Assembly (NCBI GenBank): GCA_000165345.1
Contig: CM000435.1
Span: 288,001-352,000 of the forward strand
Direction of reading: 5' to 3'
Length of the DNA: 64,000 nt
The first letter of the stretch is position 1; each line of letters starts with the position of its first letter. Made by a program: the position numbers. Positions 30,401-45,400 of this stretch are shown here, piece by piece.

Positions 30401-33400
30401 AGTACTTGGATTTCACAGCCCCAGAGTTACTCAAAGGAGAAACTTTCTCCTATAGTCTTGACGTGTGGTCTGTTGGAGTTATCATGTATTCTGTCATTAC
30501 TGGACGCCACCCATTTAGTGGCAGGTCACGAGCTGAAACTAGGCATAATATCTGCTTCGGAATTCCCGCCATTTCTGAAATTACATGCGTTTCAAATGCA
30601 TGCAAGTCATTATTAGGAAAGTTACTTGAGAAAAATCCAAGAGAAAGAATAACAGTGGATGAAGCTTTAAGCCATGATTGGTTTTCTATTTCGCATTCCA
30701 GTTACTGCGAAGTTGATATAGGGATGCCTCTTTTAGCCCACTTGAAAGTTTATACAAGACAGTCAGACTTGAGACATATATTAATTCATATGTTATCCCA
30801 TCAATTAGCACTAGATACAACTCAAATTAATATGGCAACCAGTGTTTTTAAATCTCTTGATACCGATAATGATGGAGTATTATCAATTTCAGAGTTAGGA
30901 TCTGGCTTACAAAAATTAGGTATTTCATCCAGAGAATCGTCTATGATTATTAAAGCTATGGATATTGATGGTAATGGAATTATATCATATAGTGAATTTA
31001 TCACAGCTTGTCATATTTGGAGACGAAATGAAATTAGACAGTTAAAATCTTTCTTTATGAAAATTGATCGAAATAATCAGGGAAAAATTACTAGAGAAGA
31101 ATTTAAACAGTTGCTTAAGGCACAAAAATCTAAATTGCTCTCAAATATTACCAAAAGCTTTTCTTCTACTAATGATGTCAATTACAGAACAATTCTTCCT
31201 TCATCTAATCAAGGTGTATATACTGAATGGGATTCTGTTCTAGATGAAATTGATACTAATAGAGATGGTCTTATCGACTGGAAAGAATTCTGTACTTTTA
31301 TTGTCGATTACTTTAATACTTCTAGGGAATCTTTGAGGGCATGTTACAACAATTCATCTATATCTAATATTTCTTCTACTTTTTCTATTGATCCTCCATC
31401 CGTTGCAGGGCTCTCAAGGAGAAGAGATTCTGGTATTTGCCCCGTTCAAGAAGCTAACCAGCACCCTCCCCCTCATCCAAGCCAACTAGATTAATTGAAA
31501 ATTAATTATTTGTTTCTTCCCCATTTCGTTCTACTGAGAAAGAAGGCGCGCGCGCCAAACCCATTTCTCCCTCATAGTTACATGTAAAGTGCTGCAATTC
31601 ACATGCACGCGCCAAATCAGTCTAGAATTGACATCTATTATGAGAAAGGTTTTGTTCTATAAAGTGGGAAAGATGAGGGAATAAAAATTAAAATTAACTA
31701 AACAAAGGAAAGTTGTCTACGACCGAGCTGACAATATTATCACTAGTATTGTTTTTTTTGGTCATCTCTTCTTTAATTGCGAGAATTATGTTATACGTTC
31801 TTCTGGAACTTTTTTTCTTCATATCTAAGTTAAGTTAGGTTAAGTTTATTTGCAATTGCCTTTAATATTGACTAGCTAGCTACTTATATTATCATATGGT
31901 AAATCTTCCAATTTAAATCCTCTTCTAATTTCATCTTGTACCCTATTATCAGTATCTGTAGAATCTCCTGAGTAAGCATCAATACTATTAGTGTCAATGT
32001 CACTATCACTGTATGTATCAGTAGTGACTGTTCCAGCATCAGTGTTATAGTCCTCTAAGCCAGAAGGGATTTCCTTTTCTTGGAAAAATTCTCCAAAGGA
32101 ATCAATAAAGATTTCCTTGGTTGTTGATTTGGAGAGTCGGCTTCTGCTTAAATTATCGCTGCTACCAATACTATTCAAAGCTAGAGGGAATGTGAGACCA
32201 GGCACTACCATCTTACCACTACTGACACTTGATGTTGATTTAGAATTTGTTGGTGAAGGTTCACAATCAACCGCCGGCCAAAGGAAAGAAACGTTTATTA
32301 TACCAGGGTGTCTGATTCTTGCAAATCTTTGGATCTGATCCAAAAATACTTCAATATGTTTCAACATCTCTTCATCTTCGTATATATCTGGGCTATGTTC
32401 ACCAATTAAGTTATAAGTTAAAAAGTTAAAAATTGATATAGAAAAAGGTGATTTTAGAGAAATACCATGTGATAAAGAATCCAACATTGAAATTAATCCA
32501 GGTCTTGCATGCTTGAGAATTTCTGACCATTCATCATTATCAATATTTATTGGCCCTTTATAAACCTTTGACTCTAAATAAGTCCTCCAAGCTGTTGCAA
32601 CGTACATAATAAAATTGAATTCTTGGAAAGAAACTCCTGAATATTCTAAACCTGGCTTAAGCCATGGAAGATCTTTCTCACTGCAAACAAATGGCTTCGA
32701 AAATGCTTTCCTAAGGAATTCTACTCTCTTTCTGAAAATTTGTAATGGATTCGAAAAATCCCTTATGCTGGGATCCGAACCCATGGCATTATAGATGTAC
32801 CAATTTAGCATTATTAGAAATTCCTGAGCAAGCATTGGGAATTTTCTAATGCTGGAGAGATTCTCGAAGATTGAAAGTAATGCATAATACCCAGTATTTG
32901 AATGCTTTGATGTGGTATAATTATAATCAGATTCAGATGGCCAGAAACTTCTTGCAATTGAGATGCATTTTCCCAATGTAAGTTCAGCTCTCACTTTTTC
33001 ATTCTTAATGAACCTTAATCCAAGGTAAAAGATTATTCTTCCTAGATTTTTGGCTTCCTCTCCTTCAAATTTAGGAATCTCCAGATTTAATCTCAAAGGA
33101 ATAAAGTTATCAATTATTCCTATCACCCTTCCAACATTAAAGTAACCATCCTCAGCAGTTTCTTTAATAGCATCTAATCCAAAGAGCTGCTTCTCTATAG
33201 CATAGAAAGAATCTAATAATAGATAAGCTTTGTAGAATTCAATATTCTTAAAGTATTTGGAAATCTTGGGTGTTGATTCTAAAATATCCATGCCACTGTA
33301 AGCAGAAAAGAAGTTAATGCAGTCCTCCAAGGAAATTCCTGCTCTGTTATTCCCTCCACCATTATTTGGAAGAATAGCAAAGGAAGATACATTGTCTGAA

Positions 33401-42400: not shown

Positions 42401-45400
42401 TTTTCCATTCTCGTCTTGGTAGAGCCTTCCAAAGATGCTAGTTTTCGCTTCTCATGAGCTAAAAAATGAGAAAATAGCTTATCAATCTTCACTGGAAGAC
42501 CGTTTTGGCGTTTCTGCAATGTAGTATTAATAGCCAAAGGCCACTTTGTTCCAGGGTGTCTTTTCTTGTATTTAAAAGCTCCACAAAGCTCTTCAAGAGT
42601 AATGATATCACTTGATGAACCAGTCTTGATGAGTTTTTTGTTCATAACCTCCAACATTGAACAAATCCTATTCATTTCCCAAGCCTTGATTCCATTACAA
42701 TCATTAAATCTGACAGAGATTACACGACCTAAATAATCCAAAATCCCTATCTCTTTCCAAATACGAACTGTATCAGACATGGGACCTCCAACTAAGGCAG
42801 TCTGACGCATTTCTATAACAGTTCTTTCTGGACCAAAGATATCCATAATCTGTGTTCTATCCATTGTTTTACCAGAAGAAGCTTTGCAACCCAATATATC
42901 TCTAGCCATATTTGCTATCTCCGTCAACTGATCCGTAGTCAAAGGATTTGTATAGGTTGCACCAATAACAGCAGCAATAACCTCCGTACACTGTTCCTGG
43001 CTTCTTTCCTCTTCAATAAAGTTAAGCATTATATATACCATTGACATGACTTCATCCCTAGCTATTACAATTCCTAACCTCTTTTCAATCTCGTGCATCA
43101 ATTTCTCTGCAATTCTTCTATAGAAAGGTAGAATCCTGGATTCAAATGAATTATCCTTAGGAAAAGCTTCCAAATGGAAGTAATCTGAAATCTCAATTGC
43201 AGACATTTGCTTCGATTTAGTATCAGCTCTGTGCTTTGGAAGCTGAAGGAAGTAATCTAAGATATACATAACTTCATTAATAATTCCAGAATCATCTGAA
43301 ATTCTTCCCAACAAAATATCATTCTGTAATACAGCTGCAATAATATTCAAAAATTGTGTTCTTGTCCTCATTCCTGAGTATAAATGCAAAAGCATCCTTA
43401 ACATTAAGCAAGTCTCCTGTATTGTTACATAATGTCCAAGTACTTCTCTTAATTTCACTGCAAAAGTTAAAGAAAGACCTACAAAATCCGCAGGGTGAAT
43501 CTTGATTTCTTTATTTTCAAAAGCCTTCTTGGCTGAATCAAAGAGAGCAGAACACTCGTTACTCTTTCTGTATGGTTTAGTTGCTATTTTTGGGAAATAA
43601 TCGCCATACTGAGGATTCAAGTGTTTGTAAGTCTTTCTATTACTTGGGTCTTGCCAAATTGAATCTGTTCCTGGCAAATATGATTTATACTCACTCATTG
43701 ATAACTTTGACTTGTCAATTTTTCTCCTTTCTCTCTTTGTGAATTTTTCATCTGTATTGGTGCTCTTGTGATTCAAAGAATTATTTCCAATACCAATAGC
43801 TTGATCTGTCTGAGTTGACTTTTTAGATTTTCCACTAGGCATAGAACTTTCCTCTTTACTGTCTGAAGAAGTGGAACCACTTGAAGATTTTCTTGGCTTA
43901 CTACCACTACCTGACCTGCTTCTTTTCTTCTTTGAGACCTTTTCTTCTTCCCTTTCGTTAGACTTCGATCTTTCTTCAGCCCTTTTCTTTGATTTTGTTG
44001 ATTTCTTTTTCTTCCTTCCATGAGTAACTTTTTTTGAGCCTGCATCAGATTCAGACAACTCATCATATCTCATTCCAGGAATCGGATATCTAGGCAATTT
44101 ACCAGTATCCGGATGTTTTTTCCTTCTCTCTGCATCCAATTTACCCATACTGTGAGAAGGTGAAGATTCTGAAGCTTCTACAACGAAGCCAACTCCACAA
44201 ATTCCTTCATTTTTAAATAAACCTATATTCGCATCAAAAAATATTATATTCAATAAAAAAACTGCCAAAAATCCCACCTTCCTGCTTCTTAGAGCATTAA
44301 AAGGCGTCCACATTTTTTCTTCCTGTATTGCCACAAATTCTGCATGCATGCATGCAATTCACCTGAGTGGCAACAAAATTACCTTAAATTATTATTATTA
44401 CCAGTTTAAATCCTATTTTCAATTTATCTTACTATTCCCCTATTATTTATTAAATTTATTTATTATCAAAATATGTTCCTGCTAATATATCAATATTTTC
44501 TAAAACCACTAAAATTCCAAAACTTAATTCCCTTGTTCTATTATTACTCCTTTGAATTATAATCCTGTATAAATAAATAAATATAAATATATATATATAT
44601 GTACTCACATAAATAAGCTTTATTTGGTATGTAATTATGCATATATATATTAATATGTATTTACATGCAAGTTCTTCTTATACAGGTAATCCAACCTTTT
44701 TTGTTCTTTTAACAAAAATTTTGAAAACAAATTCTCTCTACTATCTAAAAATTAGTATCGCGACCTCAAAAGATACGTTATTATTGTTTTTACTAATATT
44801 CAACTATTTACTTAGATATCCTGTACCGATATTTTACCCGTGTATCCTTGTTTTCATGTGGGGCAGGATTCCCGCCTAATTAATAAATGTCATTTATTAA
44901 AATTTATTAATAGAGAAAGAAATCCCACGTATAAATCAGAATTCCTTTTTTTTCTTTAAACTTAAAAGATTTTTAAAAATTAATAATTAATAATTTCCTT
45001 CCTTATTTTTATCTCTTTTTCATATTTTTACTAATGAATCAATTACAAACCCCTATTATTTAATACCATAACAAATAAAAAATTTGCCCGTCAGACATTT
45101 CTACCCACCCGCCACCCCCCAAACATTTGTTTCCATCTGTTAGTAATAATAAATCTGTCAGGCGCCACGAGTGCGACAACAAGCGGCATATATTTGAACT
45201 TGAAATTTATTGTGATCTATAATTATTACGCTAAAATTGTTAATTATTAATGATGTTAGGTCTTCACTATTTTCATTCTACGAAATAATTTTTAAATTCA
45301 TTTATAAGATACATTCTTATTGAAGAACACATTTATTTTGAGAAACATGAGATTCTATTTATTTTTTTTCGCTCTTTTAGTCTTCTTCGTTGCTACCAAT

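Follow-up and report, generated by a model that had tools for sequence, protein, structure and literature searches.

What might a single gene of 12.5 kb do for a parasite if its product contains no recognisable domain? This question is raised by an open reading frame (ORF) in a 64,000-nucleotide stretch of Cryptosporidium parvum chromosome 7 (assembly GCA_000165345.1, contig CM000435.1, positions 288,001 to 352,000 of the forward strand), which is called the window below; nucleotide positions refer to it. The ORF, cgd7_1270, extends over positions 31876..44349 on the minus strand, and all features of its product given here are encoded on that strand. An earlier note on this DNA, made from the sequence alone, had described the product as an orphan giant protein built around three paralogous modules of about 750 amino acids (aa). 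We found that cgd7_1270 is a genuine, translated single-exon gene, and sequence comparisons confirmed that the three copies are homologous far beyond chance. The modules might be repeated binding surfaces of a large secreted scaffold, a reading that is weighed below against several others.

Gene Identity and Expression

The ORF list and the translation showed 4157 codons without an internal stop, while the two remaining minus-strand frames contain 264 and 431 stops across the gene, which bears out the single 12.5-kb ORF described before. The complete coding sequence (one exon, 31876..44349, 4157 aa plus stop) matches exactly the protein XP_628312.1 / Q5CYR8 (Q5CYR8_CRYPI), annotated as 'hypothetical protein' on C. 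parvum chromosome 7. The locus number 7g1270 in sister annotations leads to the name cgd7_1270. The gene was also found on the 1.36-Mb chromosome CP141124.1 of the C. parvum assembly GCA_035232765.1 (at about 360.8-373.2 kb), and its orthologues, which are 3801-4166 aa long, have the same unbroken architecture.

The product has a mass of approximately 470 kDa and a biased composition with 11% serine, 11% leucine, 9% isoleucine and 7% phenylalanine; it is likewise rich in asparagine, and cysteine accounts for 0.8%. The gene entered the catalogues as a hypothetical one with the 2004 genome, and a literature search under cgd7_1270 and its other identifiers found no discussion of the protein. The name was met only as a primer label (see Neighbouring Genes) and among 61 marker genes that are termed 'neutrally evolving'. 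Translation is documented by proteomics of HCT-8 cells 3 h post infection, where the protein was identified with 40 unique peptides and 89 peptide-spectrum matches (PMC13241007, S1 Table). It is not listed in the supplements of the other proteomics and host-interface papers that we searched.

Three Homologous Modules

Module A comprises aa 1343-1988 (38386..40323), as delimited by the hhalign extents against B and C. Module B comprises aa 2122-2724 (36178..37986), identified with hhalign, BLASTP and a shuffle test, and in module C, the most diverged copy, the part detectable with hhalign against A and with the shuffle test is aa 2845-3260 (34570..35817). BLASTP aligned A (aa 1363-1805) and B (aa 2124-2575) with 25.6% identity over 485 aa (E=1.4e-12), and returned E=6.5e-6 for A-C and E=4.7e-5 for B-C. 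Because the protein composition is biased, Smith-Waterman alignments were compared with those of 100 composition-preserving shuffles. The resulting z-scores are 21.6 for A-B, 8.3 for A-C and 7.1 for B-C; where the N-terminal, middle or C-terminal region was one partner of a tested pair, the values are -1.2 to 2.6. Profile-profile comparison with hhalign, run on sub-alignments that include the orthologues, gave 579 columns for A-B (aa 1370-1988 versus aa 2127-2724, E=8.6e-30), 381 columns for A-C (aa 1343-1743 versus aa 2845-3260, E=4.5e-14) and 214 columns for B-C (E=4.1e-13).

In an AT-rich genome, with a biased protein composition and pairwise identities of just 16-29%, the likeness of the copies could have been a compositional artefact together with chance motifs. 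The shuffle test and the profile-profile alignments refute this explanation: none of the other tested pairs has a z-score above 2.6, the copies align collinearly and in register along 214-579 columns, and all three copies were recovered in every orthologue. We regard an artefact as practically ruled out, and the paralogy of the three copies that the earlier note had proposed as established by these comparisons.

From copy to copy the period is 757 and 753 aa, which equals 2271 and 2259 nt and agrees with the DNA period of about 2.25 kb reported before. The size of about 750 aa given for the modules is correct for the period, whereas the detectable homology covers about 600 aa between A and B and 215-380 aa in comparisons with C. 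Repeats at the DNA level were not found across the modules, in line with the statement that the copies have diverged there.

All copies share the motif NR[AM]xxFxxW[WL] at the module start. The form FxxWxIxxW, which had been named as the common marker, fits in its literal sense copy C only. The two core motifs EYFAAxPRxxPTIxIP and APSIGAS follow in all three copies and were located by regular expression and in an alignment of 12 module sequences. In module A the core runs from EYFASSPRRMPTIAIP (aa 1538-1553) to APSIGAS (aa 1586-1592; 39574..39738), in module B from EYFAANPRNYPTIIIP (aa 2278-2293) to APTIGAS (aa 2331-2337; 37339..37518) and in module C, which deviates, from EYLSAAPRSAFTIDIP (aa 3033-3048) to APSLGLD (aa 3082-3088; 35086..35253). 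The cores noted before as EYF...PTIxIP and AP[ST][IL]G[AL] are thus present in every copy, while the additional markers LA[DE]F and FGSP occur in A and B and are missing in C. The last collinear motif, [FY]G..SP, is weak in copy C.

The consensus of the 12-sequence alignment is EYfaa.PR..pTi.IP ... APsiGas. Across all 12 module sequences, which come from four species, the first motif keeps its N, R, F and W without exception, EYF...PTIxIP its Y, T and P, and APSIGAS its A and G. Within a module, conservation peaks on the two cores (in module A at aa 1501-1600), and over long stretches of the modules invariant columns are few. As a signature of the family we propose the collinear series NR[AM]xxFxxW[WL], EYFAAxPRxxPTIxIP, APSIGAS and [FY]G..SP in a helical unit some 600 aa long.

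Possible Further Copies

The NRxxxF motif of the module start is also found at aa 698-707 (42229-42258) and at aa 3634-3643 (33421-33450). These extra motifs are invariant in all orthologues and lie in register, with spacings of 676, 757, 753 and 750 aa along the protein. The C-terminal region (aa 3590-4039, 32233..33582) opens near an invariant ANRAATF helix motif at aa 3633-3639; compared with the modules it gave a profile match of about 25 columns (E≈0.05) and shuffle z-scores of at most 2.6. It may be a vestigial fourth copy, and the original number of modules may have been four or five. As full candidates, however, a fourth and a fifth copy (aa 660-1340 and aa 3590-4157) are unsupported beyond the 10-residue NRxxxF motif in register.

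Distribution and Age of the Modules

An exhaustive HMMER search with the three-module profile, which covered the modules only, was run against 1.84 billion cluster representatives. Three proteins were matched, each with three to four stretches, and all are full-length Cryptosporidium orthologues. The orthologues found are a 4140-aa protein with 56% identity, a C. xiaoi protein that has C. bovis in the same cluster, and a C. andersoni protein with 30% identity. Among these representatives the profile detected neither a paralogue nor a match beyond Cryptosporidium. The term orphan is therefore appropriate in so far as no outside relative was detected, but several Cryptosporidium species carry orthologues, so that the protein is restricted to the genus and not to the species. 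A search with the N-terminal helix of the module gave three strong matches per protein in four of four species. A word-index search with module A or its core returned nothing, not even the cluster of the query itself, which is part of the collection; the index seems to lack very long proteins, and this negative result carries little weight.

In a neighbour-joining tree of the 12 module sequences A, B and C form one clade each, the species order is repeated in each clade, and A and B are sisters. Identities are 14-29% between paralogous and 22-64% between orthologous modules. Since every module clade repeats the species order, the triplication is older than the last ancestor that the sampled intestinal and gastric species have in common. 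Tandem duplication gave rise to the modules ahead of the gastric/intestinal split, with A and B as the most recent pair, and the suggested ancient internal triplication is in accordance with this tree.

Searches for Known Families and Folds

A Pfam scan of the C. parvum protein found no family at E ≤ 1, and scans of five orthologues yielded two chance-level matches only (E 0.11-0.13). Sequence searches of the PDB with the whole protein, the module or the N-terminal domain, as single-sequence or profile queries, gave no E-value better than 0.48. The claim that no recognisable domain is present holds for these databases.

An AlphaFold model that was calculated from the three paralogues alone had a predicted local distance difference test (pLDDT) score of 38 and was discarded. 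With 12 module sequences a model of aa 1360-2000 (module A) reached a pLDDT of 71.9, with a predicted template modelling (pTM) score of 0.60. This model contains 28 helices, arranged in four blocks that are split by low-confidence loops, and no sheet; the module is thus predicted to be all-helical. A Foldseek search with the model against the PDB and the viral library BFVD found nothing at E ≤ 0.001, and the template modelling (TM) scores, normalised to query length, do not exceed 0.13 among the matches listed. The prediction for one module is accordingly an all-alpha model without a match to a known repeat domain. With only Cryptosporidium orthologues among the 1.84 billion representatives, no structural neighbour in these searches and no discussion in the literature searched, the module family is undescribed, as had been supposed, while the gene itself is already catalogued.

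A large helical protein could nevertheless belong to a known family that is too diverged to be recognised. The modules might be alpha-solenoids of the HEAT/ARM/TPR-like type, or the whole might be a lipid transfer protein of the VPS13/BLTP type. In six orthologues, however, no HEAT, ARM, TPR, Chorein_N or VPS13 match was obtained with Pfam. Profile self-comparison of the module revealed no short sub-repeat, which would be expected for a solenoid, and the module model has no beta-groove. A hidden member of one of these families seems very unlikely to us.

The N-terminal Conserved Domain

The conservation maximum of the protein lies in a domain of about 580 aa close to the N-terminus (aa 222-800, 41950..43686). 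Per 100-aa block 25-39% of its columns are invariant over four lineages, and identity to C. andersoni is 35-53%, compared with 30% for the whole protein. The description of the protein as built around its modules is for this reason only half the picture: the three modules are real, but the best-conserved part is unrelated to them. Many Cys, His, Asp, Glu and Arg positions of the domain are invariant, as in the stretches CLMLRxLLHxYSGMRTRxQF, FPKDNSxxSR and EELCGA, and it contains a weak internal duplication (aa 296-391 versus aa 417-505, hhalign E=0.006). Profile-profile comparison with the modules found no match, and neither Pfam nor the PDB gave one, even when the domain was used as a profile.

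A word-index search with the domain profile returned only a 332-aa C. canis fragment and has little weight, as this index seems to be without very long proteins. The C. canis orthologue (OJ253_2522, 332 aa, here P0016) matches cgd7_1270 up to approximately aa 283 and continues with unrelated sequence, which suggests a truncated gene model caused by a frameshift or an assembly error.

The pattern of conservation raises the possibility that the protein is an enzyme or a receptor centred on aa 222-800 and that the triplicated modules serve it passively, as a stalk or spacer. The high identity and the many invariant residues of this domain, as well as the few invariant columns over large module parts, fit such an arrangement. 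However, the domain is without a Pfam or PDB match, and the cores EYF...PTIxIP, APSIGAS and NRAxxF are kept across paralogues and orthologues, which is unexpected for a pure spacer. We consider an enzyme or receptor on a passive stalk distinctly unlikely.

The N-terminus and a Probable Secretory Route

The N-terminus (44215..44349) contains a probable cleavable signal peptide with a hydrophobic segment at aa 27-45 (Kyte-Doolittle peak 2.08). In the hydropathy plot this is the sole strong hydrophobic segment near the start; one other, weaker peak is located at aa 3593-3611. In C. parvum the hydrophobic core is preceded by RSRK and followed by polar residues, by eye the layout of n-region, core and c-region. 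Hydrophobic N-termini are present in all orthologues, in most of them with positive charges N-terminal to the core. The real start of the protein may be M13 (MWTPF...), because the orthologue P0012 and the C. canis fragment P0016 begin at the equivalent of this residue. The C-terminus, read by eye, is not hydrophobic, hence there is no glycosylphosphatidylinositol signal.

The segment directly after the predicted signal peptide carries the motif HPDTGKLPRYPIPGMRYDEL (aa 79-98, 44056..44115), found in the orthologue alignment. Its consensus HPDTxKLPRYPxPGMRYDEL is kept in C. parvum, C. hominis, P0012, C. xiaoi/bovis and C. canis, and it is unrecognisable in the C. andersoni sequence of this alignment. 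The motif may be a processing or sorting signal. It is followed by a basic, K/S-rich low-complexity stretch (aa 100-225, 43675..44052) with a net charge of +20; the sequence of this stretch is poorly kept, while every orthologue retains its charge, with +17 to +24 per 120 aa. The succession of a hydrophobic N-terminal segment and a basic K/S stretch had been recognised correctly.

Because the signal-like N-terminus is conserved, the other hydropathy peak is weak and a C-terminal anchor was not seen, the cgd7_1270 protein is probably cargo of the secretory pathway; we put the probability of this part of our reading at about 0.7. The low cysteine content and the use of the gene as a 'neutrally evolving' marker fit secretory cargo, and in our reading so little cysteine points to cargo of the granule or rhoptry type more than to cysteine-rich adhesins.

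The same N-terminal segment could instead be an uncleaved membrane anchor. The helical body of 4100 aa would then be cytosolic and could tether an organelle or provide a link to the cytoskeleton, while the K/S stretch would bind acidic lipids close to the membrane. Such a topology would agree with the single hydrophobic segment near the N-terminus, the one weaker peak at aa 3593-3611, the very low cysteine content and the basic stretch within about 60 residues after the segment. One C. hominis record reads 'putative integral membrane protein', and in C. andersoni the N-terminal charges come after the hydrophobic core. In C. parvum, P0012, C. canis and C. xiaoi/bovis, however, the positive charges lie directly before the core and neutral or acidic residues after it, which favours a lumenal or extracellular body. 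In addition, the basic stretch begins about 55 residues beyond the core and does not adjoin it. We judge a cytosolic, membrane-anchored protein to be unlikely.

A Possible Multivalent Scaffold

Two acidic regions complete the protein. The middle region (aa 801-1342, 40324..41949) has a net charge of -33 over aa 800-1340 and, by eye, a heptad-like stretch at approximately aa 1215-1290; profile-profile comparisons and shuffle tests revealed no significant similarity to the modules. The C-terminal tail (aa 4040-4157, 31879..32232) is rich in S, T and D, has a net charge of -12 and is mostly missing in C. andersoni. From the N- to the C-terminus the proposed layout is a probable signal peptide, a basic disordered stretch, the conserved domain of about 580 aa, an acidic linker, modules A-B-C, the C-terminal region and an acidic tail.

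As three copies of a large helical unit have been kept, each with the same two loops, repeated binding surfaces are suggested rather than catalysis. In the mechanism that we propose, the product would enter the secretory pathway, and each module would be a multi-subdomain helical bundle, in which the N-terminal helix NRAxxFxxWW is among the most conserved elements. The non-helical loop pair EYFAAxPRxxPTIxIP and APSIGAS would be presented by each module as a repeated binding surface, while the activity under the strongest constraint would reside in the N-terminal domain. The scaffold might be located within a secretory organelle or where parasite and host meet. We assign this part, a large non-enzymatic multivalent helical scaffold, a tentative probability of roughly 0.35; our explanation of the gene as a whole, its identity and anatomy included, we hold to be slightly more likely than not. 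The restriction to the genus suggests a role in a genus-specific structure. A more far-reaching version, which we hold to be quite improbable, is that the modules have a new all-alpha fold and that the protein is a building block of a Cryptosporidium-only structure such as the feeder organelle, the dense band, small granules or the parasitophorous sac; the modules, originally four or five, would then be docking units and the N-terminal domain a new functional domain.

Several points weigh against the secreted scaffold. In the pull-down with anti-DG8 serum the enrichment of cgd7_1270 was not significant (log2 2.65, p=0.056), and many ribosomal proteins were enriched as much (PMC13241007); therefore this dataset is taken as evidence of translation only. 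In the domain aa 222-800, Cys, His, Asp and Glu are invariant at many positions; it could be an enzyme, which would make the term non-enzymatic wrong. The signal peptide was assessed by hydropathy and by eye, and the N-terminus of C. andersoni is ambiguous. The structural model covers 641 of 4157 residues. Finally, Foldseek was run against solved structures and a viral library, so that relatives of the fold may sit among unsolved proteins.

Among the major causes of childhood diarrhoea is Cryptosporidium, a genus whose particular biology depends to a great extent on proteins without recognisable domains. Orphan giant proteins are common in apicomplexans. Since cgd7_1270 is kept across the deepest sampled split, between the intestinal species and C. 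andersoni, is expressed early in infection and serves as a neutral marker, it is an old, stable and genus-defining component and not a fast-evolving antigen. With the module boundaries, the loops and the N-terminal domain defined, the 4157-aa 'hypothetical protein' is resolved into units suited to tagging, truncation and expression, and the module is a candidate for a new Pfam domain family. If the protein were indeed a structural building block found only in Cryptosporidium, it would offer a target at the host-parasite interface that varies slowly and is common to the whole genus. The significance of cgd7_1270 is potential.

Neighbouring Genes

The window is AT-rich (26-37% GC) and contains long, intron-free ORFs that are tightly packed on both strands. 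The convergent neighbour at 28369..31494 (+) encodes a kinase domain and four EF-hands after approximately 400 aa without a domain match, and its stop lies 381 bp from that of cgd7_1270. It corresponds to CpCDPK9, cgd7_1260; in one paper cgd7_1260 is named in the text as the CpCDPK9 gene, yet the primers carry the label cgd7_1270, apparently a naming slip (PMC8875172).

Three further protein-kinase genes are located at 15626-18109 (+), 56622-58184 (-) and 58374-60836 (-), the last two adjacent to each other, and a GT2 plus ricin glycosyltransferase is found at 54433..56232. An FPL-domain protein (2391-5966, +) is convergent with a DEAD/DEAH-type helicase (5959-10149, -; domain matches DEAD, Helicase_C, HA2_N and DSRM_DHX29), and the ends of the two ORFs overlap by 8 bp. 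Seven ORFs of 328-1483 aa are without a Pfam match: 18249-21290 (-), 23031-24818 (-), 25063-26439 (+), 26708-27694 (+), 46694-48457 (+), 48939-53390 (-) and 61543-63975 (-). Domain-less proteins are so the rule in this region; none of the seven matched the module profile in the exhaustive search. The tRNA and Rfam scans over the 64-kb window were empty.

Comparison With Known Systems

Cysteine-rich adhesins and wall proteins differ from cgd7_1270, since no TSP/TRAP, EGF, Apple/PAN, LCCL or COWP domain was found in it with Pfam and its cysteine content is 0.8%. The SKSR, MEDLE, WYLE, FLGN, NFDQ and CpLSP families are genus-specific and have signal peptides, as predicted for cgd7_1270. In contrast to these secreted multigene families, cgd7_1270 is single-copy, lies in an internal conserved chromosome region and is a neutral marker and not a variable gene. 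A motif search did not detect the name-giving motifs of SKSR, MEDLE, WYLE, FLGN and NFDQ in it (CpLSP has no such motif).

VPS13/BLTP proteins are giants with lengths of 3000-5000 aa, and some of them are anchored in a membrane by their N-terminus. The cgd7_1270 protein resembles them in size, but its module is predicted to be purely helical and its six orthologues examined have no Chorein_N/VPS13 domain. DG8 (cgd8_5300), SG4 (cgd6_3920) and cgd4_3530 share with it a predicted signal peptide, the lack of a recognisable domain and detection at 3 h (PMC13241007). Compared with these three, cgd7_1270 is several times larger, has the internal triplication and was not significantly enriched with DG8 (p=0.056).

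The alpha-solenoids of the HEAT/ARM/TPR type differ in their repeat unit, a hairpin of 30-50 aa as opposed to approximately 600-750 aa with four sub-domains in cgd7_1270, and none is among the top structural matches of the module model. Like cgd7_1270 as predicted here, they are large, all-alpha proteins, and as interaction platforms they are the closest analogy for how cgd7_1270 might work.

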